Origin: Escherichia phage JS98
Sequence record: NC_010105.1
Length of the DNA stretch: 64,000 nt
Direction: 5' to 3' (one strand)
The notes under the pieces were generated by a model that was given only the letters and a program-made list of their open reading frames with translations, searched no databases and was not told the DNA's origin. The translations under genes and the position numbers were made by a program. Below are positions 183-62,262 of this stretch, one piece after another. Numbering within the stretch: position 1 is the stretch's first letter; every line of letters starts with the position of its first letter.

Positions 183-422
183 TTAAATTTCAGCAACGTA
201 ATCGTTATGCAATTCCCACATATCATCAGAATTATTCTTAATGATAGGAATTATCTCATTAGAGATTTCTTCTGCATAAGGGTCATTGATACAGTGGGCA
301 TCTTCAAAACGAACACCGTAATCAGACTTCTTATAGGCAAAGCCATAAATCTTTTTAAACTTAGCACGACTAATTCGTACCGGCTCATCAGACTTATCAG
401 ACAGCGGAGAGTAATACCACAT
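183..422 (-). CDS. hypothetical protein (79 aa)
   Basis: ORF track; ATG at 422 with GAGGAG SD 6 nt upstream. Confidence 0.55.
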   Translation of the reverse strand: MWYYSPLSDKSDEPVRISRAKFKKIYGFAYKKSDYGVRFEDAHCINDPYAEEISNEIIPIIKNNSDDMWELHNDYVAEI

Positions 423-466
423 AGTGTTCTCCTCATGTTGGTGTACGGTAATAGTATCACGGTTTT

Positions 467-796
467 CTAGAGTTGTACATCACTTCTACAATATTCTAAA
501 AATAATTTATCGTTGTCTACTGTATCCCAACGTCGCCAAGATGGATTCCAGACCAAAGCGTTGTCACCACAATCATTGAGCTTAAAATGGTCATAGTACA
601 TAGCTATGTGTCTAGTCTCGTCACCAGAGAACCCTAGTATAGGCTCGCCGTGGGTATGATACATATGATGGTGCATTGAGAGGTCGCATTTATAAAACAT
701 CTCACGTTTACCACGGACGAACAAGAAAGCTTGCCCATTCATATAGAATTCTTTATCCGTTTTCAAAAGGTATTTGAATACTGAATCTTTATGCAT
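467..796 (-). CDS. hypothetical His-rich protein (109 aa), possible metal-binding
   Basis: ORF track 467-811 trimmed to ATG 796 (GGAGGA SD); contains SMHHHMYHTHGE cluster. Confidence 0.55.
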   Translation of the reverse strand: MHKDSVFKYLLKTDKEFYMNGQAFLFVRGKREMFYKCDLSMHHHMYHTHGEPILGFSGDETRHIAMYYDHFKLNDCGDNALVWNPSWRRWDTVDNDKLFLEYCRSDVQL

Positions 797-3887: not shown

Positions 3888-4286
3888 TTATTTCATTTTA
3901 GCGAGGCAGATTTCATTGGCTTCCCATTGAGCTTGCTTAATAATAGCTTTGGATACAGGAACCTTTTGACCATAAGTTTTTGACGTTGAGAGAACAATAT
4001 ATTTGTTTGCCTCATTATGCCAACCTAGTGATTTTTCGCCATGACTACCTTTAACCACAGCTGACACCTCAACAGAGCAACCACCATCAGAAATCTTGGT
4101 TTCTACAATCCATTCATTTCTCTCGGCAGCTTCAATTTCCGATCTCCTTTTTTCTTCATACATGGTGGCCCAATCGGTTTTTGCCAAGTTGAAAGCAAGA
4201 GCTTTCTCTAATTCTTTGGCAGCTTTTTGTTGTTCAGGTGTTAATGAATTATATAACTCTTGCATTTCTTTATCTTCGATATTCAT
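3888..4286 (-). CDS. hypothetical protein (132 aa)
   Basis: ORF track; ATG with GAGGAG SD. Confidence 0.6.
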
Positions 4287-4343
4287 TATGTTCTCCTCAA
4301 ATTACGGGCTCATAATATCTCAATCATGGGCCCATGTAAACAA

Positions 4344-4607
4344 TTATTTCATATTATTGAAATAATCTTCTGCATTAAAATCGTTATCATGGTAAACTTT
4401 GGTAGACGTTTTGGCGTAGCCTTCAGCTGAGAACATATTAATCACAACTTTAATTGTATACCACTGTCCATCTTCGTTACCCATTACTGCATAGGTTTCA
4501 TACACTGGGTGTTCAGGACCGATAACCTTAATATCGTTAACAGTAGCACCAAATTCTTCAGGAACGCATTTCATAAAGAAATTAAACAATTCACCATAAT
4601 TATCCAT
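4344..4607 (-). CDS. hypothetical protein (87 aa)
   Basis: ORF track start 4622 is GTG; ATG 4607 with AAGGAG SD; early promoter immediately upstream. Confidence 0.55.
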   Translation of the reverse strand: MDNYGELFNFFMKCVPEEFGATVNDIKVIGPEHPVYETYAVMGNEDGQWYTIKVVINMFSAEGYAKTSTKVYHDNDFNAEDYFNNMK

Positions 4608-4628
4608 TTTACTCTCCTTCACACTGTT

Positions 4629-4671
4629 GTTTTGATAGGTCTATAGTATCATGTTTAAAGGAGGTGTAAAC
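4629..4671 (-). promoter_or_regulatory. early promoter with conserved downstream box
   Basis: Minus strand GTTTAC-N17-TGaTACTAT followed by conserved AGACCTATCAAAAC. Confidence 0.5.
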
Positions 4672-4706
4672 AACTTTGTGAAATTATTTTTAGTTTAAAC
4701 CCCCTA

Positions 4707-4728
4707 AAAGGAGACCAAAGTCTCCTTT
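4707..4728 (-). terminator. rho-independent terminator
   Basis: AAAGGAGAC-CAAA-GTCTCCTTT. Confidence 0.5.
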
Positions 4729-4730
4729 CA

Positions 4731-5348
4731 TTATTTACGGGTCTTTTCGAACTGTGCTGCGTCACCTGCAAGGCGGCGGGCTTGACGAAGTTTGTTATCA
4801 ATTTCTTCGTGCATAGGCTGGGTATACTTAAGGCCTTCAACCGTCAGGTAAAGACGATAGAGGTCCGGGGTATCTAGGTTGTTAATGTGCTGCCCATTAC
4901 GAAGGGCGTTGAATTCTCGAACGAGTTGTTTAGTTTCGGATTCGATTTCAGAAACCAAAGAAGCCAGCTGGTTATATTTTTTAACAATAGTGCTGGTGTC
5001 GAACTTGATTTTAGGTTTAGGAGCTTCTTTTACAGGCTCTGCTTTAGGTGTAGGTTTCGGCGCTGCAACTTTGGTCTGAGCCGCGGGTTTAGAAACAGGA
5101 GCTTTAGCTGGTTTAGCAGGCTTAGTAGAGCCACCGGCTACGATATCTTTAAAAGCTTTGGAAGCTTTGTAATATTCTTTCTGGCTACTAGTATCAAAAC
5201 CATACATATCATAAACGTTTTTAAAGAACTCGGTAGTGGTTTTAGTCCCGGAAATTTTATCATAAGCAGCTTGCCACATATCTTTAGTCATGCGCACGCC
5301 GGCTTCATTCAGAACGCTTTCGTTCAAAAATTCATTGTAAGTTTTCAT
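4731..5348 (-). CDS. internal head protein (IPIII-like) with capsid-targeting sequence
   Basis: N-terminus MKTYNEFLNE matches T4 IP capsid-targeting sequence MKTYQEFIAE; Pro/Ala/Lys-rich basic segment; late promoter TATAAATA upstream; hairpin terminator downstream. Confidence 0.65.
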   Translation of the reverse strand: MKTYNEFLNESVLNEAGVRMTKDMWQAAYDKISGTKTTTEFFKNVYDMYGFDTSSQKEYYKASKAFKDIVAGGSTKPAKPAKAPVSKPAAQTKVAAPKPTPKAEPVKEAPKPKIKFDTSTIVKKYNQLASLVSEIESETKQLVREFNALRNGQHINNLDTPDLYRLYLTVEGLKYTQPMHEEIDNKLRQARRLAGDAAQFEKTRK

Positions 5349-5376
5349 TATTGTTTCCTGTGTTAATTAACTTATC

Positions 5377-5384
5377 TATTTATA
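5377..5384 (-). promoter_or_regulatory. late promoter TATAAATA (IPIII-like gene)
   Basis: Exact motif on minus strand immediately downstream of terminator hairpin. Confidence 0.55.
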
Positions 5385-5390
5385 CAAAAA

Positions 5391-5412
5391 GGCCCAACCT
5401 TTCGGAAGGGCC
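5391..5412 (-). terminator. rho-independent terminator (repeat copy 1)
   Basis: GGCCCAACCTTTCGGAAGGGCC; U-run on minus strand. Confidence 0.55.
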
Positions 5413-5417
5413 GTAAA

Positions 5418-5972
5418 TCAGTTCTTGTAGAACCGGAACGGGTTCACGTGGAAGGCCAACATAGCTTTAGGGATTTTACGAGACAAAAGACTCTTAAGCT
5501 TCCAGCCACAGTACACGCGAAGGTAAAATGTGATTCCGCCGACCTTAAGATAAGGAACTGAAGCAAATACACCCCAGGCGTCATCATTCCACATCCACAA
5601 CCAACCATGGTGAGCTTTATCAGGAGAACCTGATTCTACGTCAGGATTACCACGATAATGGAATTCCGAGCTACAATCACGGCCTAGTTTATGATAAGCA
5701 AAGTTATAAGCTTTATTTCGCCATAGCCAAGCTACTCTCTGGAGATAAACACCACCAGGCATTTTCCTGATTTTAGCCCAACGTTTAATATGACCTTTAT
5801 CGCCGTCAATTGGATTATCGTATGTCATCATCCAATCAAAACCGTATGGCAATTTACCAGTCTTTTTATTATGAAAAGGAACCACAAAAGGCGCAAGGAT
5901 AACGGCTAGAACCATAGAGATAAAATCTAGTGGGACCAACAGAATCCAACTCAAATATTTTAAAAGTTTCAT
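5418..5972 (-). CDS. membrane-anchored protein (184 aa), late-expressed, unknown function
   Basis: N-terminal hydrophobic helix LSWILLVPLDFISMVLAVILAPFVV; Trp-rich C-terminal domain; AGGAAA SD; TATAAATA late promoter upstream and identical hairpins on both flanks. Confidence 0.6.
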   Translation of the reverse strand: MKLLKYLSWILLVPLDFISMVLAVILAPFVVPFHNKKTGKLPYGFDWMMTYDNPIDGDKGHIKRWAKIRKMPGGVYLQRVAWLWRNKAYNFAYHKLGRDCSSEFHYRGNPDVESGSPDKAHHGWLWMWNDDAWGVFASVPYLKVGGITFYLRVYCGWKLKSLLSRKIPKAMLAFHVNPFRFYKN

Positions 5973-5998
5973 ATTATTTCCTAAGTTAGTTTACTGTA

Positions 5999-6006
5999 TA
6001 TTTATA
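5999..6006 (-). promoter_or_regulatory. late promoter TATAAATA (membrane protein gene 5418-5972)
   Basis: Exact motif on minus strand immediately downstream of terminator hairpin. Confidence 0.55.
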
Positions 6007-6013
6007 CAAAAAA

Positions 6014-6035
6014 GGCCCAACCTTTCGGAAGGGCC
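6014..6035 (-). terminator. rho-independent terminator (repeat copy 2)
   Basis: Identical 22-nt hairpin; U-run on minus strand. Confidence 0.55.
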
Positions 6036-6205
6036 TTTAACCTAGGGTAACCTTGTCGGGGTTCCACCTGCTAGGCAAGTGTTCTGTGCGCCGTTTCAGC
6101 TGTGAGATAAGGGACTTTAAGAGGAACTCATGTACTCCTTAAAGTCGGGTCTTATTCAGGGAACTTCAGTCCGACGACTTACCGGTAGCGACCCGGTTTC
6201 TTGTT

Positions 6206-6281
6206 TGGTCGAGACAGTAGGGATCGAACCTACGACCTACGGTTTAGAAGACCGTTGCTCTTCCTTCTGAGCTATGCCTCG
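6206..6281 (-). tRNA. tRNA-Arg (anticodon UCU)
   Basis: Cloverleaf readable: acceptor CGAGGCA/TGTCTCG, anticodon stem ACGGT/ACCGT with loop CTTCTAA, T-arm GGTTCGATCC, 3' CCA encoded. Confidence 0.75.
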
Positions 6282-6285
6282 TATT

Positions 6286-6360
6286 TGGCGGACATGCATG
6301 GATTCGAACCATGGACCAATTGATTAACAGTCAACTGCTCTACCGCTGAGCTACACATCC
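6286..6360 (-). tRNA. tRNA-Asn (anticodon GUU)
   Basis: 5' GGATGTGTAGCTCAGCGGTAGAGC..., anticodon loop CTGTTAA, T-arm GGTTCGAATCC, 3' CCA encoded. Confidence 0.75.
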
Positions 6361-6364
6361 AAAT

Positions 6365-6438
6365 TGGTGGCCCTGGGTGGAATCGAACCACCATCCAGCG
6401 ATTATGAGTCGCTCGCTTGACCGTCCAGCTACAGGGCC
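6365..6438 (-). tRNA. tRNA with CAU anticodon (Met, or Ile if lysidine-modified)
   Basis: Acceptor GGCCCTG/CAGGGCC, anticodon stem AGCGA/TCGCT with loop CTCATAA, T-arm GGTTCGATTCC, 3' CCA encoded. Confidence 0.75.
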
Positions 6439-6443
6439 TTAAT

Positions 6444-6710
6444 TTAAATTACAAATCCAGCAGGAGCATTATCGTCTTTAGCCATGTGCTGAATTGTATG
6501 ATAAGTCATTTCTTCAGGAGCAACCAGATAAGCCGCAGCATTAACTAGTGGAATTATTTTTGGTTTAGCGAATGTGCTATCGGCAATTGCCATAAAGGGC
6601 TCGCCGTCGGTCTCAACTTCGCCAAATTGGCATTCATATGAAATAGAACAACGTTTAGTAGTTGTTGTCTTGGTTTCTGGGTCATAAAAAGCTAATTTTA
6701 ATACTAACAT
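6444..6710 (-). CDS. hypothetical protein (88 aa)
   Basis: ORF track start 6716 is GTG; ATG 6710 with GAGGTG SD. Confidence 0.55.
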   Translation of the reverse strand: MLVLKLAFYDPETKTTTTKRCSISYECQFGEVETDGEPFMAIADSTFAKPKIIPLVNAAAYLVAPEEMTYHTIQHMAKDDNAPAGFVI

Positions 6711-6839
6711 AAACACCTCAAATAAAATTAAGTAAAGTAAGTTTGATTAATAGACCTTGTCTATTATGAAAGGCTCTTTGAGGGAAGAACCTTTGGTAAT
6801 AGAGGGTATTAATGATAGAGTAATAATATCACATAATTC

Positions 6840-7316
6840 TTAAAGCATATCAAGTGCTTTCACATCAGGGATTTTAATTTCTTCTTCAATAATATACAGC
6901 TTAACGTAAGAAATTACACGGATGAAATCACCATCATATTCACAAGCCATACCAAGGAGCTCAGTAAGGGCTTCATTCAAGTAGTATTCTTCTTCGTCAT
7001 CGTTCAGCAAGGCTTCTAAGTCTTGGATACCGAGGACTTTATCTAAAAATTCAGGAGTCAATTGGCCTGATTTTACACCAGATTCAATGTGGGCAATAAC
7101 CAGATGCTTAACTACGTCCCATTCCGAATTACCACATTTATCCGGGTTGTTGCAATGAGAACCATGGAAAAGTTCTAGGATATATTTGTACTGTTGGATT
7201 TCATGTTCTTCTACGCCAAATACAGTCTGGGTTTTATAGTTATCGCCATCATTTTCCCAGGTTTCAATTTCAATTGCATAACCTTTAGGGATAATTTGTC
7301 CGAATTTAATATTCAT
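6840..7316 (-). CDS. hypothetical protein (about 158 aa)
   Basis: ORF track start 7325 is GTG; ATG 7316 overlaps upstream stop (ATGA coupling). Confidence 0.55.
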   Translation of the reverse strand: MNIKFGQIIPKGYAIEIETWENDGDNYKTQTVFGVEEHEIQQYKYILELFHGSHCNNPDKCGNSEWDVVKHLVIAHIESGVKSGQLTPEFLDKVLGIQDLEALLNDDEEEYYLNEALTELLGMACEYDGDFIRVISYVKLYIIEEEIKIPDVKALDML

Positions 7317-7603
7317 TGTGGCCACATATTAATGTAATCAAGTTTAATAGAAGCAATTTTCAAAGGATTTTTAAAGATGTCATATTCGACCAACCCATTT
7401 TCATTTGCCGTATAAAAAGTAAAGTTAACAGAATTATAGCGTTGGCTGTTAACTTTGAGTTTAACATCGCTTGAACTACGGCCAATATTAACCTGTTGAA
7501 CATCAAGCACAGCATCTTTGCCGTAATTTCGAATCAACAACTCAGCTGCAACCTGATCGGATTTATAGCCATTCTCTGGATTAGTAACCTTAACGTATAA
7601 CAT
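7313..7603 (-). CDS. hypothetical protein (96 aa)
   Basis: ORF track; ATG start directly after upstream stop. Confidence 0.55.
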   Translation of the reverse strand: MLYVKVTNPENGYKSDQVAAELLIRNYGKDAVLDVQQVNIGRSSSDVKLKVNSQRYNSVNFTFYTANENGLVEYDIFKNPLKIASIKLDYINMWPQ

Positions 7604-8005
7604 TTAACCCTCGTCTACAATAGTGTGGGTATTGGCATTAACAATCTGCCACCAGCCAAAACGATTAGAACCGTAAAGAGGCTTATTCTCGTTTTCTTTA
7701 ATGATATCGCGCAGTTCATCTTCAGAGAAGGCTTTAGCGATTAAATCAGTATACCCACCGCGTGGATAATAATTATCACCCGCAAACAAAAGGAAATTTA
7801 CCTTTCCGGAAGGAACATATGCTTCCTTAGGATACTTGTTTCCTGCGTGGTCGACAACTTCAATATAACGGTAAGGAATATCAGTACTTTCAACCCATTG
7901 CCATGCTGCTGCAGGGGATTCAAAAGCATCAACACCTAAACGATTATCTTCATCTTTAGACGGATTATTTTCGTAATCCGCATATACATAATATTCAACG
8001 TTCAT
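7604..8005 (-). CDS. hypothetical protein (133 aa)
   Basis: ORF track; TAATG overlap with upstream gene. Confidence 0.55.
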   Translation of the reverse strand: MNVEYYVYADYENNPSKDEDNRLGVDAFESPAAAWQWVESTDIPYRYIEVVDHAGNKYPKEAYVPSGKVNFLLFAGDNYYPRGGYTDLIAKAFSEDELRDIIKENENKPLYGSNRFGWWQIVNANTHTIVDEG

Positions 8006-8190
8006 TATTCACCTTTAGAGATTTTATCCATAACGAAAGAGATTGAACCAATTAAGAATGCCACTACTAAAGAGATTGTATTCTCGGAAGTTGTAAGCAA
8101 ATCCAACATGAATCCTGCAAACATACTAAAGCCAAAAGCAGTAACGGCGGTCAGTGCAGTAACATTTCTAATTAATTCACAACGTTTCAT
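8005..8190 (-). CDS. small membrane protein (61 aa, 2 predicted TM helices)
   Basis: ORF track start 8202 is TTG; ATG 8190 with GGAGAA SD; early promoter upstream. Confidence 0.5.
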   Translation of the reverse strand: MKRCELIRNVTALTAVTAFGFSMFAGFMLDLLTTSENTISLVVAFLIGSISFVMDKISKGE

Positions 8191-8212
8191 TTTATTCTCC
8201 AATCACTCATTT

Positions 8213-8257
8213 GTTTTGATAGGGCTATAGTATCATCAACTAAAGCCCGTTGTAAAC
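8213..8257 (-). promoter_or_regulatory. early promoter with conserved downstream box
   Basis: Minus strand GTTTAC-N19-TACTAT-AGCCCTATCAAAAC. Confidence 0.45.
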
Positions 8258-8259
8258 AA

Positions 8260-8553
8260 TTATTTTGTAATTTCTTTGATTTTAGAAACTACTTTATCTT
8301 TGGTAAGACCGGAAAAAGTCTTATATTTTGTAAAGTGGATATCATCACCAAGATTAATATAATATTTCTTTTTAACCGTATTGAATGCTATACTAACAGG
8401 TTTACCATTTACTGTAATAGTAATTTGCTGAGCCTTATCAACATCACCTGAGCCAAAGGCTCTTTTAATATCGCTACTAATATCGGCCATAGCCGCTTTG
8501 TTAATGGAATACAAATCTGTCGATTCTTTGATAAATTCTTGATAAGTTTTCAT
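8260..8553 (-). CDS. internal head protein (IPI/IPII-like) with capsid-targeting sequence
   Basis: N-terminus MKTYQEFIKE matches T4 IP capsid-targeting sequence; position next to 57B corresponds to the hypervariable ipI locus of T4-like phages. Confidence 0.65.
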   Translation of the reverse strand: MKTYQEFIKESTDLYSINKAAMADISSDIKRAFGSGDVDKAQQITITVNGKPVSIAFNTVKKKYYINLGDDIHFTKYKTFSGLTKDKVVSKIKEITK

Positions 8554-8578
8554 TTTTTGTTTCCGTTAGGTTGGGTTT

Positions 8579-8621
8579 GTTTTGATAGGGCTATAGTATC
8601 ATGCCTATAGACCTTGTAAAC
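8579..8621 (-). promoter_or_regulatory. early promoter with conserved downstream box
   Basis: Minus strand GTTTAC-N17-TGaTACTAT-AGCCCTATCAAAAC. Confidence 0.5.
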
Positions 8622-8632
8622 ATCTTTTTAAA

Positions 8633-9516
<884 letters not shown>

Positions 9517-14628: not shown

Positions 14629-15150
14629 ATGAGCACAGATTTAGGAGACTCCATGGAAGGAGCCTCAATCGATGTTACGTTTACCGCTCAATTAGAAACA
14701 AACGAAACATTAGTTGAAATAAATATAACAGAATATGAGCCAACAGAAGGCATTATTGTCGATGGGGCTCGTTTATACGGAACCTATGAATCGGTATTCG
14801 GATTTTCTGAAGATGCGTTAAAATATCGATTAGGCGATGAATTTAAAACAGCAGGTTCATGGAAAGATTTACCAGAGGACAAGAGCACTCAATTATACCT
14901 CTGGAAAGCCCCTGGTAATCTTCAGAAGACTTTTTCCTATACCGTCACATTAATCTATGACTTTCAGGAAGAGTCATCAGGAGGTGATACAGGGAGCTCA
15001 GGAGGAAGTAATTCTAGAGCCGGTAACGAAACAGACCCTCCTCCAGCACCAGTAAGAAAAACTCTTACTAAGGTTTATACCAAGGTTATAGTGGGTAATT
15101 GGAGCAAATGGGCTAATCAACTCAGAGAATATGTATATGCGAGGCCATAA
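14629..15150 (+). CDS. 5.1: gp5.1-like protein
   Basis: Position between 5 and 5.4; ORF track start 14569 overlaps gp5, first ATG after gp5 stop used. Confidence 0.55.
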
Positions 15151-26463: not shown

Positions 26464-28719
26464 ATGATTAACAAATTGGAACTTAGTGAGTTACCATTTG
26501 TTGACGGCGTACCTGATGCTCCTCAAAAGCGTATCCAATGGATACGCGAGGGTGATTGTATGTCTGCAGCAAAAACAAAATACGGCAATGAAGGTAATTT
26601 GAACGCTGCTGCTTTAGGAGTTCAGAAAAACGTAGAAGCTCTTGATGCCAACGATTTAAAAACTGCTGATAAAGTTAATGAGCTTATAGAAAACGTTAAT
26701 AATATCAATGACGCTTTAGAAATGTCAACAGATATTTCTATCATTCAACAAATAGAGAAAAACCGTGTTGATATTGTAGACCTTAAAAAAGTCACCGAAG
26801 ATACAACAGAAAAATTAGACACCTTAACAACCAATTTTGATTTCTTGCGTGAAGATGTTGGATACCATGACCCTTTACAAGACGGCCCATATTTAACTGT
26901 ACGTGAAAATATTGTTCTTCTTAAAAATGAAATTGGTCACTATGAGGACCAGGATATAAACGGTAATCCTTTACCTCCGGGTGAAACTAGTGAAGCCACT
27001 GGTATAAAACGCCGCATCATGGATAATACCACTGAATTGGTGGACCACCGTCTTCGTATTGATACCCTTGAAAGAAACTATGAAGATTCTGATGTTGGGC
27101 AATTAGGTATTAAACTAAATGAAATTCGTGCCGAATTAGGACCACATTCTGATACGGTAGGTAAACAACCCGCTTACACCCGAATTTCAGTATTAGAAAC
27201 GGCTGCAGTTAATTTTAATACGGCTATTGACGAAATTAAGGATAATATTGATTTCTCTGGTATGCCTATAAAGGACCGAGTAACTACTTTAGAAAGCAAA
27301 ACCTTTACCTTAGAAAATTCAGTTAACGTTGATTTAAAACCTAGAGTAACTTCTATAGAAACTCAAATCGGTTCTGAGTCTGCACCAGCATCTATTAATG
27401 GACGTTTAAGTGGGCTTCGTACTGATGTAAATGATTTAAAAACCGTTGTTGGTAATAGTTCTAGTGAAGGGCTTCGTTTCCAGGTTTCCGATATTAATCG
27501 ACGCCTTGGTAGTGAAGTGTCTCCTGCAGCTGGCACTATTAATAAGCGTTTGAATGATGTTATTATTCAAGCAAACCAATCTACCTCATCCATCCAGGAT
27601 ATTCAGGTAGAAATTGGTAACAACCAATCCGGTATAAAAGGTACTTTGCTTAAGCTCACAAATAAGGTTGACGGAACGAACCCTAACGGAGCTACCGTAG
27701 AAGAACGTGGTCTTATTAATGCGGTTACTTCTTTAGAAACCCAGATGCAAGGTAAATTAGGTGACGCGCCTTCTGATGGTAAACTCTATGCACGTCGAAA
27801 TGCGGCATGGGCTGAAGTTGTTAATAATTCCACAGAAATAGAAACTGTTAAAGCCGATTTGGTTGTTACTAATGGTAAAGTGACCGCTTTAACTTCTAGA
27901 GTAGATGATAACGATACTTCTATTTCATCTCTTAATACTCGCACCACTGCTCTAAATACTTCGGTTGGTGAGATTAAAGCCGATATAGTTACTATAAAGG
28001 CCAAAGATGTTGAACAGGACGGTCGTTTAACTTCTTTGGAAGAGGCTGATGTTACTATTAACGGTAAAATTGCTGCTCTTGAAACTAAGACAGATACCAC
28101 TGATGATGATGTCACAGCACTGGCTTTAGACGTTTCTTCTTTAGAGAACCAATTGACTCCTATAAAAGCCGATATTACCAAAAACAAAGGTGATATTGTT
28201 GCCTTAACTGGTCGAGTGGCTTCTACTGAAGGTGAAATTACCGCAATTAAAGTTGATACAGCCAAAATTGCTCCTTTAACAACTAGAGTTACTACGGCAG
28301 AAGGTAAAATCACTACTTTAGAAACAGGGCTTGCCGCTGTTAAAGTCGAATCCGATAAAGTAGCAGGAATCAATACCCGCCTTGGCACTGCAGAAGGTGA
28401 CATCGGAACACTTAAAACAGGGTTGGCTGAAGTTAAGGGTGAATCCGATAAAGTAGCAGCTATAGATACCCGTTTGGGTGTTGTTGAAGGCGAAGTTGGT
28501 ACTCTTGAAACAGGTTTGGCTGCTGTTAAAGTTGAATCTGATAAAGTTGCTGACTTAGGAACCCGTTTAACCGCTGCCGAAGGTAAAATTACAGCCTTAG
28601 AAACAGAATTATCTAAACGTCCACCGGTGGCTCCTGCCGCAGACGGACTTCCGTATGTTCTGGTTGATAACGCATGGGTATTATTGTCTGATTTTGTGAC
28701 TTTAAACTCAGCACCATAA
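26464..28719 (+). CDS. wac: fibritin (whisker/neck protein Wac), extended
   Basis: Long coiled coil; C-terminal foldon-like DGLPYVLVDNAWVLLSDF; 93-bp tandem repeats near 3' end. Confidence 0.85.
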   Translation: MINKLELSELPFVDGVPDAPQKRIQWIREGDCMSAAKTKYGNEGNLNAAALGVQKNVEALDANDLKTADKVNELIENVNNINDALEMSTDISIIQQIEKNRVDIVDLKKVTEDTTEKLDTLTTNFDFLREDVGYHDPLQDGPYLTVRENIVLLKNEIGHYEDQDINGNPLPPGETSEATGIKRRIMDNTTELVDHRLRIDTLERNYEDSDVGQLGIKLNEIRAELGPHSDTVGKQPAYTRISVLETAAVNFNTAIDEIKDNIDFSGMPIKDRVTTLESKTFTLENSVNVDLKPRVTSIETQIGSESAPASINGRLSGLRTDVNDLKTVVGNSSSEGLRFQVSDINRRLGSEVSPAAGTINKRLNDVIIQANQSTSSIQDIQVEIGNNQSGIKGTLLKLTNKVDGTNPNGATVEERGLINAVTSLETQMQGKLGDAPSDGKLYARRNAAWAEVVNNSTEIETVKADLVVTNGKVTALTSRVDDNDTSISSLNTRTTALNTSVGEIKADIVTIKAKDVEQDGRLTSLEEADVTINGKIAALETKTDTTDDDVTALALDVSSLENQLTPIKADITKNKGDIVALTGRVASTEGEITAIKVDTAKIAPLTTRVTTAEGKITTLETGLAAVKVESDKVAGINTRLGTAEGDIGTLKTGLAEVKGESDKVAAIDTRLGVVEGEVGTLETGLAAVKVESDKVADLGTRLTAAEGKITALETELSKRPPVAPAADGLPYVLVDNAWVLLSDFVTLNSAP
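28276..28608 (+). repeat. 93-bp tandem repeat (about 3.6 copies) inside wac
   Basis: Units start at 28321, 28414, 28507; encode 31-aa repeats GLA(A/E)VK(V/G)ESDKVA..TRLG..EG..GTL.T. Confidence 0.7.
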
Positions 28720-41835: not shown

Positions 41836-42102
41836 CTATGCAATCTTAACACGACGGTTGATGATATCACGGAAGTCAATACGATTTTCTTGGATTTTCA
41901 GCCAGTTACCAGATTTGTCTTTGGTATGGGTAGAGTATTCACCGTTCCACCAGAAGTCGGTAGCATAAGCCATGGCTTCGTATTTCTTAACTAGTGCATT
42001 CACTGCATTACCGTTAGGATTGGAACCATATTTTTCTACCAGGGCTTTGATGTCTTTATCAAGAGCGGAAAGAGTAGTACGAATAAAGTTTAACTTGTTC
42101 AT
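41836..42102 (-). CDS. hypothetical protein (88 aa) between genes 23 and 24
   Basis: ATG 42102 with GAGGAG SD (ORF track start 42117 is an upstream in-frame ATG); early promoter upstream; occupies the position of segD in T4. Confidence 0.55.
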   Translation of the reverse strand: MNKLNFIRTTLSALDKDIKALVEKYGSNPNGNAVNALVKKYEAMAYATDFWWNGEYSTHTKDKSGNWLKIQENRIDFRDIINRRVKIA

Positions 42103-42117
42103 TTTTAATCTCCTCAT

Positions 42118-42161
42118 GTTTTGATAGGTCTATAGTAACATGTGATAACCTTGCTGTAAAC
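42118..42161 (-). promoter_or_regulatory. early promoter with conserved downstream box
   Basis: Minus strand GTTTAC-N18-TACTAT-AGACCTATCAAAAC. Confidence 0.45.
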
Positions 42162-42167
42162 AACTTT

Positions 42168-42175
42168 TATAAATA
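42168..42175 (+). promoter_or_regulatory. late promoter TATAAATA (gene 24)
   Basis: Exact motif. Confidence 0.6.
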
Positions 42176-42203
42176 AACATATACCCTCAATAAGGAAAGC
42201 GCA

Positions 42204-43484
42204 ATGGCAAAGATTAACGAATTACTGCGCGAGTCAACAACTACTTCTAGCAACTCATTGGGTCGCCCTAATCTTGTTGCTTTGACCCGTGCTACAACCA
42301 AATTGATTTACCGTGATATTATTGCTGAACAACGTACTAGCCAGCCTATTGCTGCATTGTATGGTGTCAAATATCTTACTCCTGATAATGAATTTAGCTT
42401 CCAAACTGGTGCCGTTTATGGCGGTGAAGTTGGTTCTAAAGACCGTGAAACTATCCCAGAACTCACAGATAAGGCCCAGGCTATTGCCAAGGGTGAATAT
42501 TTCAAGTATCAGAACATAGTTTATAAGGCTCTTCAAGCAAGCCCACTCGCATCCACTAGCGCTACAGAATTGGCTGAGGCCCTTCAAGAAGGTTTGGTGT
42601 CATTAACATGTCGTCTGGTTCCTGATGCGGCTCACACAGAGAAATTCGAAGCAGGTGATGTTGAAATTAGTAATGCAGTATTCCAGGTTAATAAATGGAA
42701 CGCACCTGTTAAGTCTCGTAAACTTAAAACCGCTTTGACTGTAGAACTAGCCCAAGACATGGAATCCAATGGCTTTGACGCCCCTGCGTTCTTAGAAGAC
42801 CTTTTAGCCACTGTAATGGCTGATGAAATCAATAAAGACGTACTACAATCCTTGATTACCGTATCTAAACGTTACAAAGTAACTGGTGTATCTGATAATG
42901 GTATTATTGATTTGTCCTATAATTCCGCCCCAGAAAGTGCACGTAAATTATATGAAATGGTTTGTGAGATGAATTCTGAAATTCAGAAAACCACTTCTTA
43001 TTCAGGTACGTTTGTTGTCGCATCTAGTCGTGCTGCTGCTATGCTCGCTGGTTCAGGTTGGTTGAAACATAAACCAGAAGATGAAGCTTGGCTCCCAGAA
43101 ACTGCTTACGGTTATTTGATTAATGGATTGCCTGTATTCTGTGATGTTAATAGTCCTTTAGATTATGTTATCGTAGGCGTTAAAGAAGATTACGGCGGTA
43201 ATGAAGTAGTTGGTTCTATTTTCTATGCTCCATATACCGAAGGTCTGGATTTAGACGACCAAGAACATGTTGGTGCGTATAAAGTTATTGTAGACCCTGA
43301 TAGTTTACAACCGGCTATTTCTCTGATGGTTCGTTATGCACTTTCAGCAAACCCATATACCGTTGCTAAAGATGATAAAGAAGCTCGTGTTATAGACGCA
43401 ACTAATATGGATTTAATGGCAGGTCAGAGTAACATGTCTTATCTGCTTGGTGTTAAACTTCCTCCGATTATTTACGAGGCATAA
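42204..43484 (+). CDS. 24: gp24 head vertex protein
   Basis: N-terminus MAKINELLRESTTT.SNS.GRPNLVALTRATTKLIY matches T4 gp24 as recalled; late promoter 42168-42175. Confidence 0.9.
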   Translation: MAKINELLRESTTTSSNSLGRPNLVALTRATTKLIYRDIIAEQRTSQPIAALYGVKYLTPDNEFSFQTGAVYGGEVGSKDRETIPELTDKAQAIAKGEYFKYQNIVYKALQASPLASTSATELAEALQEGLVSLTCRLVPDAAHTEKFEAGDVEISNAVFQVNKWNAPVKSRKLKTALTVELAQDMESNGFDAPAFLEDLLATVMADEINKDVLQSLITVSKRYKVTGVSDNGIIDLSYNSAPESARKLYEMVCEMNSEIQKTTSYSGTFVVASSRAAAMLAGSGWLKHKPEDEAWLPETAYGYLINGLPVFCDVNSPLDYVIVGVKEDYGGNEVVGSIFYAPYTEGLDLDDQEHVGAYKVIVDPDSLQPAISLMVRYALSANPYTVAKDDKEARVIDATNMDLMAGQSNMSYLLGVKLPPIIYEA

Positions 43485-44768
43485 ATGAAAAAGATTAATG
43501 CATTAATACAAGAATCAACTTTGACGGCGGCCAACCAGGTCGCCCGTCCTAATCTTCTTTCATATACCCAGGCAACTAATAAAAGAATTTTTAAAGCCCT
43601 TGTTGCTGAACAAAAAACTACTCAACCTGTTGCAGCATTATATGGTGTCCGTGTTTTAAACCCAGACGATAAAATGACTTATCTCGGCGGAGCCACTTTT
43701 GCAGGCGAAATTGGTATGTTCGAACGTAAAAACATTCCTGAGTTCACCGATAAAGACGAAGCATATGCTGTTGGCGATATGTTCCAATTCGAAAGTGTGG
43801 TTTTCAAGGTATTAGAAGCTTCTCCGTTTGCAGGAACAACTGAAACCGATTTGAGTGAAGTTATTTCAGAAGCTATTGCCGCGGGCCATATTCGTATGAT
43901 GTCTGATGCAGCCTTTACCAATAAATTTGAAAAAGGTCATCCTGAGATTGCTGAAGCAGGGTTCCGTATTGATAAGTGGCAGACTGAAGTTAAATCGCGT
44001 AAACTTAAAACTTCTTTGACTGTGGAACTGGCCCAGGATTTAGAATCCAACGGGTTTAATGCACCGGACTTTATAGACAATATTTTGGCTATTCAAATGG
44101 CTGAAGAAATTAATAAAGACGTATTACAGTCCTTAATTACAGTAAGTTCTCGTTTTAAAGTCCAAGGAGTTTCTGAGAAAGGTGTCTTGAACTTAACAGA
44201 CCCACAATACGATAACGCCCAAGACCGAGCACGTACCTTGTATTACTATATGTGTGAAATGAATTCTGCTGTTCAACGCCAGACTTCGTTTGCAGGTACT
44301 TATGCAGTAGCTTCTTCTCGCTGCGCTGCTATTTTAGCTGCATCCGGTTGGGTTGAGAAAAAAGAAGACCAAGACGAATTAGCTTATGGCGTATTAAAGA
44401 ACGGTCTACCACTTTATGCTGATATGAACAGCCCGTGTGATTATGTTATTGTCGGTGTAAATGCTCAGATGGGTGAAGGGCAGACGGTCGCATCTTTGTA
44501 TTATGCGCCTTATACGGAAGGGCTCGAAGAGGTTGATGATGAAGGTGATACTTCAGTAGGTGAATTCAAGGTTATTGTAGACCCGGATTCATTGCAACCT
44601 ACCATATCTTTATTGGCTCGGTATGCATTGACTGCGAATCCTTATACCGTCGCTAAAGACGACAAAGAAGCTCGTATTATTGATGGTGCGGATATGGACA
44701 AAATGGCTAATCAAAGTCAATTGAGTTCTTATCTTGGTGTAAAACTTCCTCCATTGGATAAAAACTAA
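43485..44768 (+). CDS. gp24 paralog (second head vertex protein-like gene)
   Basis: 427 aa, alignable along full length with the upstream gp24 but diverged (MKKINALIQESTLTAANQVARPNLL...). Confidence 0.8.
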   Translation: MKKINALIQESTLTAANQVARPNLLSYTQATNKRIFKALVAEQKTTQPVAALYGVRVLNPDDKMTYLGGATFAGEIGMFERKNIPEFTDKDEAYAVGDMFQFESVVFKVLEASPFAGTTETDLSEVISEAIAAGHIRMMSDAAFTNKFEKGHPEIAEAGFRIDKWQTEVKSRKLKTSLTVELAQDLESNGFNAPDFIDNILAIQMAEEINKDVLQSLITVSSRFKVQGVSEKGVLNLTDPQYDNAQDRARTLYYYMCEMNSAVQRQTSFAGTYAVASSRCAAILAASGWVEKKEDQDELAYGVLKNGLPLYADMNSPCDYVIVGVNAQMGEGQTVASLYYAPYTEGLEEVDDEGDTSVGEFKVIVDPDSLQPTISLLARYALTANPYTVAKDDKEARIIDGADMDKMANQSQLSSYLGVKLPPLDKN

Positions 44769-46125: not shown

Positions 46126-46229
46126 AACAATTCTCTCGTTGAGTCGGTAAAACTCATCTTAACATAGAATTTTTAACTTGTAAACAGGAATTTTGTACTT
46201 TAATGCAAAATGGGCCTTGCGGCCCTTAA

Positions 46230-47078
46230 TTAATAAACGTAATCGTATATAATACCAGCTTCTAAAGCGGTGCGATGAATAATTCGTCCATTACGAGATT
46301 CTTGTACATCAACCTCCGGATAATCGGTAATCATTTTTTGAAGTGTATATCGGTGCAAATAATACGGGCTATCTGGGTCATCAGTTTTCCAGTCTTGTCC
46401 GGCAAGAGTCATTTTCTGAATTTCATCCATAACCCACCAACCACACCAGATATAAGCTGAATTACGTACTGGCAATGGATGAACGTAAGGTAATTCGCCA
46501 TCTGGAACAGGTGCGACTTTAGCTGTGACTGTTACATTACCAGTTTTTGTGACAGTTGCCTGGTTATAATCTGTAGCAGATACAACAACAGAAACTTCAA
46601 TTAACTGGGAACCTTCGGCGCTTGTGTCGATTGCTAAAGTATCCGTGGTGCCAACTACAGGAGAACCGTCTTTCTTCCAAGAATAGGCAAAAGTAGCACC
46701 AGCAGGCGCACCGGCTACAGTAGCTTTAAAAGAAGCCGGAGTTCCTTCAGGAACATTAATTGATTCTGGGGTTAATGTAACAGAAACACCTGACATTGTT
46801 TTATTCTGGATAGTTAAAGTTGTCTCAGCCTCAGCAGTTTCCGGTTCACCGTCTGCCGGAGTGGTAGTTGCAACAACTTTAATAGTCTTACTGCCTGCTG
46901 GACCAACAGCGACATAAGCCATTGCTGCAGTTACAGAAGATTGAGGAACGCCATCAACGGTCCAGACAAATGATTCGGTACCTTCAGCTGCAGCACCGGA
47001 ACCAGTCGCAGTGAAATTGGTTGTTGCTCCAATAACGGCCGTAGCCGCCAAAGGAGCAATATCTACGGTATAAGCCAT
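46230..47078 (-). CDS. hoc: Hoc head outer capsid protein
   Basis: Thr/Val-rich beta-rich N-terminal part followed by Trp-rich C-terminal module (AYIWCGWWVMDEIQKM); synteny next to inh. Confidence 0.75.
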   Translation of the reverse strand: MAYTVDIAPLAATAVIGATTNFTATGSGAAAEGTESFVWTVDGVPQSSVTAAMAYVAVGPAGSKTIKVVATTTPADGEPETAEAETTLTIQNKTMSGVSVTLTPESINVPEGTPASFKATVAGAPAGATFAYSWKKDGSPVVGTTDTLAIDTSAEGSQLIEVSVVVSATDYNQATVTKTGNVTVTAKVAPVPDGELPYVHPLPVRNSAYIWCGWWVMDEIQKMTLAGQDWKTDDPDSPYYLHRYTLQKMITDYPEVDVQESRNGRIIHRTALEAGIIYDYVY

Positions 47079-49311: not shown

Positions 49312-49535
49312 AGTCCTTTAAAGAAGTTATCTATGAAGCCTCTATCGAGAGCTTCATGTCTAAAATTAGTTCCTGTCAGACCATGGAAGGTCTGGAGGAA
49401 TTAGAGAAGTATTACAAAACTCGTAGTAAGGAAGCCGAACTTCGTGATTCGGATGATATCAGCGTACGCGATGCATTGGCTGGTAAGAGAGCCGAATTGG
49501 AGTCGATGGACGACGAGGAAGAGGAAGATTTCTAA
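49308..49535 (+). CDS. uvsW.1: UvsW.1
   Basis: 75 aa with acidic C-terminus; ATGA overlap with uvsW. Confidence 0.75.
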   Translation: MKSFKEVIYEASIESFMSKISSCQTMEGLEELEKYYKTRSKEAELRDSDDISVRDALAGKRAELESMDDEEEEDF

Positions 49536-49543
49536 ACAAAAAG

Positions 49544-49565
49544 GGCCCAACCTTTCGGAAGGGCC
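49544..49565 (-). terminator. rho-independent terminator (repeat copy 3)
   Basis: Identical 22-nt hairpin after the uvsY operon; U-run on minus strand. Confidence 0.55.
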
Positions 49566-49595
49566 AATAACCATAAAATGGCTATACACACTAGA

Positions 49596-57649: not shown

Positions 57650-57940
57650 TTATTTACGGAACGAAATGAAACCTGCTGCTGTCATTAATGGCTGCTTTTT
57701 AACAAAGACCGTAATAGAAATAGGAGCTTCAGATTCAAGCTGGCCGGTTACTACACCATTAAAGATATTTTCAGTTTGTTCGGGTTGTGAAAAATTTTCA
57801 ATTGGACGTAAGTCGAACTGCTTGTCTTCGCCGAAAACTCGACGTAATTCATTACCGACTGCACTGTCGAACTCTTCAGAAGCAGGGATAACGTTTTCAA
57901 CTACCAGTTCTTGACCGTTAAAGCGGAATGCAGATTTCAT
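57650..57940 (-). CDS. hypothetical protein (96 aa), alt.-1 position
   Basis: ATG with GAGGAG SD; early promoter upstream at 57969-57998. Confidence 0.55.
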   Translation of the reverse strand: MKSAFRFNGQELVVENVIPASEEFDSAVGNELRRVFGEDKQFDLRPIENFSQPEQTENIFNGVVTGQLESEAPISITVFVKKQPLMTAAGFISFRK

Positions 57941-57954
57941 AATGTTCTCCTCAT

Positions 57955-57998
57955 GTTTGTGTAAGGTAATAGTACCACATCCTTGTGGTGTTGTAAAC
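57955..57998 (-). promoter_or_regulatory. early promoter (diverged copy of the conserved box)
   Basis: Minus strand GTTTAC-N18-TACTAT-TACCTTACACAAAC. Confidence 0.4.
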
Positions 57999-60124
57999 TA
58001 CATTTTGAATTTATTTGGTAAAGAAGAGATGTCCAAAGATGCAGCAAGGATTTCCATAGCCTCATTACTTTCTGAAACAGATTCTGAAACTAGGAATTCT
58101 TTAAACCCGTTCATCAATTTAACTTCACCGGTTTCCATCAGATGGTCACCATCGTAAACGGACTCACTGAGTTCTGAAGGAGATGTCACTGTAGCTTCCA
58201 TAAGGTATTTGTGAGATACTCTATCATTCATAGCAAAAGCCGCTACTTTATCAACCTTCAACAATAATCCTCGCGGAAGGATAATTTCTGCTTCTTCGGA
58301 ATATTCTGTAAGGTCACCAGGAGCGATAACTTTAACTGCTTCAGCACCTCGAATAACCATACCGATTTCAGCAATCCTGTCTGCAGGGCCTTCAGGTGCA
58401 ATTGGATTACCGAACTCGTCTTCTTCCCATTCTACCTCTTCATCATCAACTTCGCCTACATCAGATGAACTACCACTGGCTAATTTAAACAACTCATCAG
58501 CGGAGGATAAAGAACCTTCATCACCAACAAAAACTGCTTGGTTGTCGAGGGCCATATAATTTTTACCAAATTCGCCAAAGATATTAGGCTTTAATGAAGC
58601 AGACACAAAGTTCTTAAAGTAAAATGTTTTGTTATCAATATTATGGCGCAGAATTTTGTATGGTAAATCCTGACCACGATACAAAATAGTACCCTTAGGA
58701 AGTTTAATACCCTTGGTAAATGCTGAGTCTAAATCCTTAATCAATTTAATAGCTGTTGTATTGTTTTCGGATTCAGGTTTACCTAAAAGGAATAAGTTCA
58801 TAGGAGCATATTCAGCCGCACAATATTCAATAATGGCATTGCTTTCGTCTTTGGTCAAGCCCTTAGGTTTAATGAGCTCGCCTGAATAAGCATATGCATC
58901 GCTAATAGAATCGTTAATCAGTTTATAAACGGCTTCCATAGCGAAAGCAATTCGGGATGCTTTCTCTGAAGGAGACCCCTGAAAACGGGCACTCAGGTTA
59001 TTAACAATTCTCTTAATAATATCCAGACTATTGGTAGTATTGATTTGAGAAAGGCCACTTAAAAGTCTATCGACTTCCGTATTAAAAAATGCCATATTAT
59101 TAGAGTAAATTTCAAACCCTTGTTTATCTCTATTAGCATAATTTAGTTTAAATTTACTATCAGTCATTAAAGCGTGCGTGAGAGCAATGGTGTATCTAAA
59201 GTTGGCAAGGTCCTCACTCTTAGATTTAAACTGAGAGGCCTGACGCATTTTAGTAATAGCACCTTTTTTAAAGTTCTGACTAATCTGCTCAATACCTTCG
59301 TTCTCAGGGCCTTCGGCCGAGTGAACAGGGACAGAAGCTTCAAACTCGTTATAAACCTGCAATTCTTTAGGTGATAAAGTTTCAGGTTCGGCAGTAGAAT
59401 ACTGCGCTGCTGCAGCCATACGACGGGAAATCTTAGTACGAGAAATAACAGCCTTATCGGTACGTTTCTCTTCAACCTGTGCAATAGATGCTGCTACGGC
59501 TTCGACCTTACTTACAGCCTGGCCGGTTTTCTTAGAAACATAAACTTCACCGACTTTAGACTCAACCTTGGTATAAAGGTCCGCATCAATTTCAGGCATA
59601 CCCTTGATATCTTCGATATTAGTGCCACGACGTGCTAAAAGAACGTATGTATGTTTACCACTAAACTGGAACATATCATCGACAACTTTAAACTTACCAC
59701 CGGTACGGGCCATCGCCAAACGAGCTAATACACGCTGAACAGTAGGGCCTTTACCTTTCATTTTCTTGGTAGGGAAACGGAATAAAACCGCATCCATTTT
59801 AAGTTTATTTACTTGTTCGTATATCGTATCGAAAATAGTATTCAATGTACCAAGTGGGTCGGAACCAAGGCCACCTTTGAGTTCAGCCGGGGCACCCTTG
59901 CTCGACAAACTCATTAAAATAACATGGACATATTTGTCGCCTGGCTTAACCATTTTAATAGCGTCTCCTTGAGACGCATAAGATACCATACGAGCAACCA
60001 GGTTATCGTTACCCGGTGCATGGATAGAGAAAATCTGTGGAATACCGGAACCCGGTTTAAGATTTGTTACTGGATAGTTTTTAGCGGAATCACTATCAAA
60101 AACCTCGTTTAAATTTTCCATCAT
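57998..60124 (-). CDS. Alt-like ADP-ribosyltransferase, paralog 1 (708 aa)
   Basis: N-terminal half alignable with downstream paralog; C-terminal ART-like elements YRG, SAS, E-A-E before IILPRGLL; position of alt in T4. Confidence 0.75.
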   Translation of the reverse strand: MMENLNEVFDSDSAKNYPVTNLKPGSGIPQIFSIHAPGNDNLVARMVSYASQGDAIKMVKPGDKYVHVILMSLSSKGAPAELKGGLGSDPLGTLNTIFDTIYEQVNKLKMDAVLFRFPTKKMKGKGPTVQRVLARLAMARTGGKFKVVDDMFQFSGKHTYVLLARRGTNIEDIKGMPEIDADLYTKVESKVGEVYVSKKTGQAVSKVEAVAASIAQVEEKRTDKAVISRTKISRRMAAAAQYSTAEPETLSPKELQVYNEFEASVPVHSAEGPENEGIEQISQNFKKGAITKMRQASQFKSKSEDLANFRYTIALTHALMTDSKFKLNYANRDKQGFEIYSNNMAFFNTEVDRLLSGLSQINTTNSLDIIKRIVNNLSARFQGSPSEKASRIAFAMEAVYKLINDSISDAYAYSGELIKPKGLTKDESNAIIEYCAAEYAPMNLFLLGKPESENNTTAIKLIKDLDSAFTKGIKLPKGTILYRGQDLPYKILRHNIDNKTFYFKNFVSASLKPNIFGEFGKNYMALDNQAVFVGDEGSLSSADELFKLASGSSSDVGEVDDEEVEWEEDEFGNPIAPEGPADRIAEIGMVIRGAEAVKVIAPGDLTEYSEEAEIILPRGLLLKVDKVAAFAMNDRVSHKYLMEATVTSPSELSESVYDGDHLMETGEVKLMNGFKEFLVSESVSESNEAMEILAASLDISSLPNKFKM

Positions 60125-62212: not shown

Positions 62213-62262
62213 AATAATTCCTCTTTAATAACCGTATTTATGCCATAAAAGGCCCGAAGGCC

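Follow-up and report, generated by a model that had tools for sequence, protein, structure and literature searches.

In this study we show, on the evidence of aligned promoters, that a 20-nt box recurring in Escherichia phage JS98 is a genome-wide and family-wide early-promoter consensus and not peculiar to the four sites at which it was noticed. The DNA analysed was a stretch of 64,000 nucleotides from sequence record NC_010105.1 (the window). The box would best be read as the -10 hexamer TACTAT (after TGn), the discriminator AG(A/C)CCT, the start A and the first 8 transcribed bases, AUCAAAAC, and its part beyond the -10 as an early-class-specific start-site module that distant T4-like phages have as well. 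Alignments of candidate promoters establish early-promoter identity, a fixed register to the -10, family-wide spread and near-absence from middle and late candidates; as judged from these comparisons, the start-site block is genuinely conserved, ancient and specific to early promoters. Taken together, we think it probable that the box belongs to the core of a Dhakavirus early promoter served by host sigma70, that it holds a start-site module acting on the polymerase, and that the promoter forms a cassette of the PeSL (promoter-early stem-loop) type.

A search of the window for GTTTTGATAGGKCTATAGTA gave four exact matches (4629-4648, 8213-8232, 8579-8598 and 42118-42137, plus-strand coordinates), just where the first-pass annotation had reported four near-identical copies. 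There were no further matches in the window at up to three mismatches, and the number expected by chance is 0, with no match across 100 dinucleotide-preserving shuffles. The stretch at 57955-57974, which had been called a diverged copy, matches at only 13 of 20 bases by our own count and is a related promoter instead. Read on the minus strand, all four copies follow the pattern GTTTAC-N17-19-TGnTACTAT-AG(A/C)CCTATCAAAAC, also written GTTTAC-N17-19-TACTATAG, and the proposed distance of 17-19 nt between GTTTAC and TACTAT is thus confirmed at each of them (17, 19, 17 and 18 nt; 18 nt at the alt.-3 site). In a repeat search the four copies formed a single 63-nt family with 62-78% identity, which means that the similarity covers the entire promoter, though the spacer varies; it is concentrated in the -35 hexamer and from -16 to +10. 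Conservation beyond the -10, as had been claimed, is indeed present, and crosses the start site to about +8. The first-pass annotation had missed a sixth TACTAT promoter at about 444-480 and four boxless early-type promoters with the first base of the -10 at 158, 3860, 4317 and 46161. The main features, as read from the sequence, are as follows:

4605-4695, minus strand: early promoter cassette 1, with -35 GTTTAC at 4671-4666, TG, -10 TACTAT at 4648-4643 and an A-rich upstream region; predicted +1 A at 4636, box at 4629-4648, SD AAGGAG, ATG at 4607-4605.
8188-8280, minus strand: early promoter cassette 2, trna.4 orthologue, with -35 at 8257-8252, a 19-nt spacer and -10 at 8232-8227; predicted +1 at 8220, box at 8213-8232, ATG at 8190-8188.
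8551-8645, minus strand: early promoter cassette 3, of an internal-head-protein gene (MKTYQEF... start), with -35 at 8621-8616 and -10 at 8598-8593; predicted +1 at 8586, box at 8579-8598, ATG at 8553-8551.
42100-42185, minus strand: early promoter cassette 4, between genes 23 and 24, with -35 at 42161-42156 and -10 at 42137-42132; predicted +1 at 42125, box at 42118-42137, SD GAGGAG, ATG at 42102-42100.
57938-58020, minus strand: early promoter of the same class, alt.-3, with -35 at 57998-57993, -10 TACTAT at 57974-57969, then TACCTTACACAAAC, and ATG at 57940-57938.
420-490, minus strand: sixth TACTAT-type early promoter, with a -35-like ATGTAC at 480-475, -10 TACTAT at 456-451, then TACCGTACACCAAC, SD GAGGAG, ATG at 422-420.
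4286-4350, minus strand: neighbouring boxless early promoter, with GTTTAC at 4341-4336 and -10 TATTAT at 4317-4312.
4707-4728, minus strand: GC-rich hairpin GGAGAC-TTTG-GTCTCC followed by TTTT (the same hairpin was flagged on the plus strand), a likely terminator, between an IP-like ORF (4731-5348) and promoter cassette 1.

The reading as early promoters, put forward in the first-pass annotation, is supported by GTTTAC, the TGn extended -10, the A-rich upstream region, the correct orientation and the T4-orthologous positions. GTTTAC is present at all five sites (the four copies and alt.-3), and TTTACA in the sigma70 register shares five of the six bases of TTGACA. All four box promoters carry TG at -15/-14, and a generic promoter scan likewise saw the box sites as sigma70-like (TTTACA, 16-18 nt spacer, TACTAT, TG). 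An A/T-rich, UP-like region lies at -40 to -45 in the flanks of the copies, and the family profile has A at 0.59-0.74 from -43 to -39. MotA-dependent middle promoters are marked by (a/t)(a/t)TGCTT(t/c)A centred at -30; the box promoters have GTTTAC and lack TGCTT. T4 late promoters have TATAAATA at -13 to -6 and no -35, and the box promoters have TACTAT as -10 together with a -35. With the covariance models of Rfam 15 at gathering score, no family matched the box, and the only hits in the window were three tRNAs at 6209-6438.

The box promoters lie directly upstream of, and co-oriented with, small early-region ORFs, the gene order being taken from the annotation of JS10 and T4. All ORFs downstream of them fall in PHROG families of unknown function, such as the 87-aa ORF behind cassette 1 (4344-4607, phrog_2678) and the 88-aa ORF behind cassette 4 (phrog_6003). 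Cassette 2 is orthologous to the T4 promoter with its -10 at 73548 and cassette 3 to the T4 ipI promoter (-10 at 73915), and cassette 4 is also found in JS10 (-10 at 105217). The alt.-3 promoter reads GTTTAC-N18-TGgTACTAT, is orthologous to the T4 alt.-3 promoter (-10 at 123069) and precedes an ORF matching phrog_1739. The sixth TACTAT promoter shows 75% identity over 73 nt to the alt.-3 promoter region in the repeat search.

The part of the window from 4000 to 9000 is 97.9% identical to Escherichia phage MN04 and 97-98% identical to IME281 and JS10, the latter two being Dhakavirus members of the T4-like Tevenvirinae. The window corresponds to about 63-130 kb of JS10. We assembled the JS10 genome, listed its early-strand GTTTAC-type promoters and curated 41 of them, by pattern and not by experiment. 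Most read TGnTACTAT-AGACCTATCAAC, and TACTAT is the majority -10 hexamer. Aligned on the -10, these 41 promoters have G-5 at a frequency of 0.68, C-3 at 0.80, C-2 at 0.73 and T-1 at 0.88, followed by A+1 at 0.85, T+2 at 0.71, C+3 at 0.71 and A+5 at 0.88. The conserved block thus comprises G-5, C-3, C-2, T-1, A+1, T+2, C+3, A+4 and A+5, fades after about +8 and holds about as much information as the -35 hexamer. A motif scan of the complete JS10 genome found CCTATCAA 27 times on the early strand, 24 of them at 3-4 nt after a -10, and only twice on the other strand, so that the element is strand-specific, promoter-locked and in fixed register. Roughly one early promoter in four, some strong-looking TATAAT promoters among them, lacks the block, which is therefore not essential. 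Among MotA-box promoter candidates of JS10 the block is present in 2 of 19.

The four window copies are of the CAAAAC sub-variant; the majority variant is CAACTA. In JS10 this variant occurs at the promoters with -10 at 62219, 67572, 70466, 70832 and 105217, and the AAAAC sub-variant clusters in one hyperplastic region at 62-71 kb, with a further site at 105 kb; this looks like local spread.

T4 early promoters (for the consensus see Liebig and Rueger 1989 and the review PMC2988021) have the same GTTTAC -35, 17-18 nt spacer, TGn, TA(C/T)(T/A)AT, A-rich -40 region and A at +1 and, in a weaker form, the start block CCTATCAAC; the trna.4, ipI and alt.-3 sites are orthologous. They differ from the Dhakavirus genome, in which the start block and G-5 vary much less and TACTAT is the majority hexamer; the window copies carry CAAAAC. 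The T4 records AF158101 and NC_000866 hold no annotated promoter features and our literature search yielded no usable genome-wide T4 transcription start-site dataset; our T4 set is made up of 37 early promoters curated by pattern, not by experiment. Their consensus, CCTATCAACTA, is weaker than that of JS10. A typical T4 site reads TACTAT-ACAACTATCAACTAC, and CTATCAA stands in register in 10 of 37 T4 promoters, compared with 22 of 41 in JS10. C-3 reaches 0.80 in JS10 and 0.46 in T4, and position -5, G at 0.68 in JS10, is not G-conserved in T4 (A, 0.32). None of 25 T4 MotA-box promoter candidates has the block, and no conserved block follows the TATAAATA motif in late-promoter candidates. Parts of this pattern have been noted before: 'additional regions of consensus' were described for T4 early promoters (PMC2988021) and a C preference at -3 to -1 for RB69, RB49 and 44RR (PMC1524935), in both cases with no function given.

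Beyond T4, a short-query search matched 27 nt exactly in T4-like phages of Klebsiella and Enterobacter and gave matches of about 93% in RB69-like phages. An exact-pattern scan of IMG/VR viral contigs returned at least 117 stretches with the block; the pattern specified 17 bases, for which tens of chance matches can be estimated across the collection, and we therefore place weight only on T4-size genomes with several hits and on Acinetobacter phage Acj61, which among the matches listed has three full ones, against an expectation of about 1e-4 for 164 kb. Of the matches listed, 65 have TACTAT ahead of the block and 34 have TATAAT, so that the block is separable from the TACTAT hexamer. One contig that is not T4-sized, 2974667502_000001 (63.5 kb), carries two GC-rich GTTTAC-N18-TATCCT-NNN-CCTATCAACAGCGACAAGGACCA sites with similar flanks, either an unrelated repeated promoter sharing the start block or a coincidence.

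The promoters also sit at places where close relatives differ in gene content. The window has 1088 bp (4298-5385) where JS10 has 77 bp with a single box promoter. The 1088-bp segment contains the IP-like ORF, the terminator hairpin, box promoter 1, the 87-aa ORF and the TATTAT promoter, and its junction falls in the SD region. Four relatives, IME281, CLB_P2, AnYang and IME08, lose their homology to the window at 8256-8266, at the UP/-35 edge of the trna.4 promoter, and regain it at 8524-8532, within the conserved leader and first codons of the internal-protein gene behind box promoter 3. Over the intervening stretch (window 8267-8523) they carry unrelated IP genes in place of the body of this internal-head-protein gene. 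Breakpoints at cassettes match the model of modular shuffling by PeSLs (PMC2839356, PMC4122927), a literature in which JS98 is mentioned only in passing. Other differences between relatives were seen as well. The ORF at 5418-5972 (stretch 5413-5963) is missing in CLB_P2 and IME08, the deletion being flanked by repeats of about 75 bp at 5339-5412 and 5964-6035. Opposite window positions 15147-15149 and 46189-46273, JS10 carries an inserted mobE homing endonuclease and, on the plus strand, two additional genes, one tail-fibre-like and one Hoc-like, none of which the window has; the second of these boundaries directly adjoins the upstream side of the -35 in the early promoter whose -10 is at 46161.

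A sequence that lies at recombination boundaries could have no function of its own: the likeness of the blocks would then come from duplication of cassettes and recombination or gene conversion among them, as in PeSL-type mobile cassettes. The boundaries just described fit this reading, as do the published PeSL model (PMC2839356, PMC4122927), the regional clustering of the AAAAC variant in JS10 and the near-identical promoter sets of T4, which are alike from the upstream region through the leader (for example, -10 at 27056, 55360, 70672, 163649 and 167062). However, conversion of whole cassettes would homogenise spacer and block alike, and what is seen is a block retained beside a -35/-10 spacer that has diverged strongly, both between copies and between orthologues: in 26 orthologous pairs of T4 and JS10 promoters, spacer identity is 0.15-0.5 (near random), compared with 0.54-0.77 from -2 to +5. 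The -10 hexamers and discriminators that precede the block moreover differ across distant genera, an Acinetobacter phage included, and the register of the block to the -10 is fixed at 3-4 nt. We consider descent without function fairly unlikely as the whole explanation; some of the similarity could stem from common ancestry of the cassettes. The stronger suggestion, that the box is a recombination sequence (a homing-endonuclease site, for instance) unrelated to transcription, does not hold: the cassettes are recombination boundaries, yet they are promoter-linked, and the strict strand-specificity and promoter-locked register argue against it.

Where transcription would start is suggested by the T4 record, in which the coordinate in the name of early promoter 'Pe133295' falls on the A 7 nt after the TATTAT that we located at 133307-133302; this supports a +1 at the A of CCT-A-TC. 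By homology we infer starts for the four box copies at 4636, 8220, 8586 and 42125, and likewise their early timing. The first-pass annotation had left a choice between a start-site or initial-transcribed-sequence element and a regulator site. The former is favoured by the fixed register to the -10 and by the most conserved bases, -3 to -1, which are untranscribed, so that at least this half of the block acts as promoter DNA.

The precision of start-site selection, the contact of sigma region 1.2 with promoter DNA and promoter escape are familiar properties of E. coli RNA polymerase. Against this background the block would work through RNA polymerase: a lone purine flanked by pyrimidines, 7 nt past the -10, might give one precise ATP-initiated start, the G at -5 would suit a contact with sigma region 1.2, and a G-free, A/U-rich initial transcript could permit fast escape from a very tightly binding promoter, one that unites UP, -35, TGn and -10 contacts. 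The probable roles of the block are thus to hold initiation to a single A and to facilitate promoter escape, with a uniform 5' leader as a possible by-product. The closest functional precedent known to us is in coliphage T5, where work of the Bujard laboratory in the 1980s reportedly found that the downstream region of early promoters, over the first ~20 transcribed bases, acts on promoter clearance. Those promoters are likewise very strong phage early promoters with conservation into the transcribed bases; they differ in sequence, function is reported to be demonstrated for T5 only, and the block described here starts upstream of +1 and ends at about +8.

Instead of the promoter, the RNA might be the selected entity, with the transcribed half (AUCAAAAC / AUCAACUA) serving as a 5' leader that affects mRNA stability (5'-end-dependent decay), access of RegB/S1 or ribosome loading. 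The 5' end of the transcript would be identical from all box promoters, the short leaders lead straight to a GAGGAG-type SD, and RegB targets GGAG in early SDs, where RNA structure protects (PMC3014915). Yet the best-conserved bases are not transcribed, and conservation declines beyond about +8. The SD of early promoters follows +1 at anything from about 10 to 30 nt, which points to an element anchored to the -10 and not to the ribosome site; there is no Rfam match either. A role as RNA leader seems very unlikely to us.

Equally little likelihood is given to the block being the binding site of a phage or host protein specific for early promoters, for example a factor shutting them off 2-5 min after infection. 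The position across +1 is typical of repressor sites, the block is early-class specific and almost absent from MotA-box middle candidates, and it is conserved across phages of different hosts. The idea is attractive only because reviews state that the shut-off of early promoters is unexplained (PMC2988021 section 8; PMC3014915 section 5). Against it stand the lack of a candidate protein and of dyad symmetry, the weakness of the block in T4, where shut-off was studied (CTATCAA in register as given above), and the boxless early promoters, which would escape control.

Four further candidates were tried and rejected. The NAD-capping promoter consensus does not fit at -2, -1 and +2, and AUCAAC shows no complementarity to the 3' end of 16S rRNA. 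A sigma-dependent pause element could be seen in the T4 block aACTAT, but JS10 has ACCTAT without the key A. Hairpins as the cause of box conservation fail since the right arm covaries freely with the spacer and CCTATCAA is kept in hairpin-less promoters.

Hairpins are nevertheless frequent in these promoters. In T4 and JS10 the spacer is complementary to its own -10/discriminator (type A) or its own SD (type B) in about 56-57% of early promoters: at a stem score of at least 6 the values are 56-57% for own pairs and 16-22% for mismatched pairs, and at a score of at least 8 they are 24% in T4 and 29% in JS10 for own pairs, compared with 0.9% and 6.6% for mismatched ones. Between orthologous sites of T4 and JS10, compensatory changes preserve the stem, as in these arms:

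cd.2: T4 GGTAGAG / CTCTACC; JS10 GGTAGGACT / AGTCCTACC.
ipI: T4 GATGAGGTA / TACCTCATC; JS10 AGGTCTATAG / CTATAGACCT.
regB: T4 CCTCTT / AAGAGG; JS10 ATCTCCTGTAG / CTACAGGAGAT.

Stem positions that are not Watson-Crick pairs are of the G.U type in eight cases and of the A.C type in one, a bias that hints at pairing in sense-strand RNA, i.e. in read-through transcripts. Significant folds in the window span 8227-8257 (promoter 8232, z -2.29), where the spacer GGGCT of cassette 2 pairs with the discriminator AGCCC; 8593-8621 (promoter 8598, z -2.98), where GGTCTATAG in the spacer of cassette 3 faces CTATAGCCC; and 4312-4341 (boxless promoter 4317, z -2.73), where GGGCCCAUGAU is predicted to pair with AUUAUGAGCCC in a spacer/-10 hairpin. 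The folds at 4648 (z -1.05) and 42137 (z -0.35) are not significant. In addition, the box tail CAAAACAA is complementary to TTGTTT overlapping the -35 (7 bp in copy 1; 4661-4673/4624-4632 and 8247-8259/8208-8216). By this complementarity of TTGTTT to AAACAA of the box the whole promoter could lie inside an outer stem of read-through RNA, of which at least 4 bp follow automatically from GTTT and AAAC.

The combination of early promoter, hairpin and replacement boundary is of a known kind: the element is a T4-type early promoter organised as a PeSL-like cassette. The PeSLs of RB49/phi1, PST/T4 and nt-1/KVP40 (PMC2839356, PMC4122927) share with it an AT-rich upstream region, a strong early promoter, an SD with start codon and a location in hyperplastic regions, beside small genes of unknown function, where close relatives have replacement boundaries. 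Their stem-loop, between -35 and -10 or over the -10, has a counterpart in about half of the promoters here. They differ in their stems, which here are short (5-12 bp), not G-run/C-run and without a U-tract; two of the four box copies have no significant hairpin. The promoter-leader unit behaves like a PeSL-type cassette, whose variable spacer often pairs with its own -10/discriminator or SD and whose conserved arms bound gene replacements between close relatives.

Type B stems also recall the hairpins that sequester ribosome binding sites in T4 and contain a promoter (e, soc, 49 and I-TevI), all of which involve late promoters (PMC3014915 section 29). In both, the SD forms the 3' arm and the 5' arm is located ahead of the start site, so that only read-through transcripts would be masked. 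The documented cases have late promoters, whereas here an early-promoter spacer provides the 5' arm; a putative early promoter inside an RBS-masking hairpin is not among the T4 cases documented there. It might be possible to go further and see the -5 to +8 block as a separate cis-element, read by something beyond the bare sigma70 holoenzyme and a target of shut-off (or of stimulation by ADP-ribosylated polymerase), with the spacers as anti-SD or hairpin arms by which each early gene would be translatable only from transcripts of its own promoter. We regard this combined scheme as distinctly unlikely. If it were true, the start block would be the route by which early promoters abruptly shut off minutes after infection, and the spacer arms would be a general system restricting the translation of early genes to own-promoter transcripts.

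The block is as conserved as the -35, early-specific and spread across host genera, and is hence a cheaply testable candidate for the source of promoter strength or for the means of switch-off. The cassettes, covarying hairpins and replacement boundaries extend the PeSL picture to the internal-protein and tRNA region of Dhakavirus, where anti-defence cargo genes are swapped. At the level of annotation, which is routine in itself, six unannotated early promoters were identified in a T4-like phage used in therapy-type collections.

Several other repeated features were noted in the window. A terminator-like hairpin, AAAAAGGCCCAACCTTTCGGAAGGGCC, a repeated regulatory module distinct from the promoters, is present in three copies (5375-5419, 5998-6042 and 49528-49572) with 73-100% identity. 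Tandem paralogues, annotated likewise in JS10, were found for the capsid vertex gene 24 (42204-43484 / 43485-44768) and for the alt ADP-ribosyltransferase gene (57998-60124 / 60125-62212), both pairs with about 70-83% identity over the repeat stretches. Within the fibritin (wac) gene there are three tandem 93-nt repeats of 65-72% identity, at 28294-28572, which probably encode coiled-coil segments.
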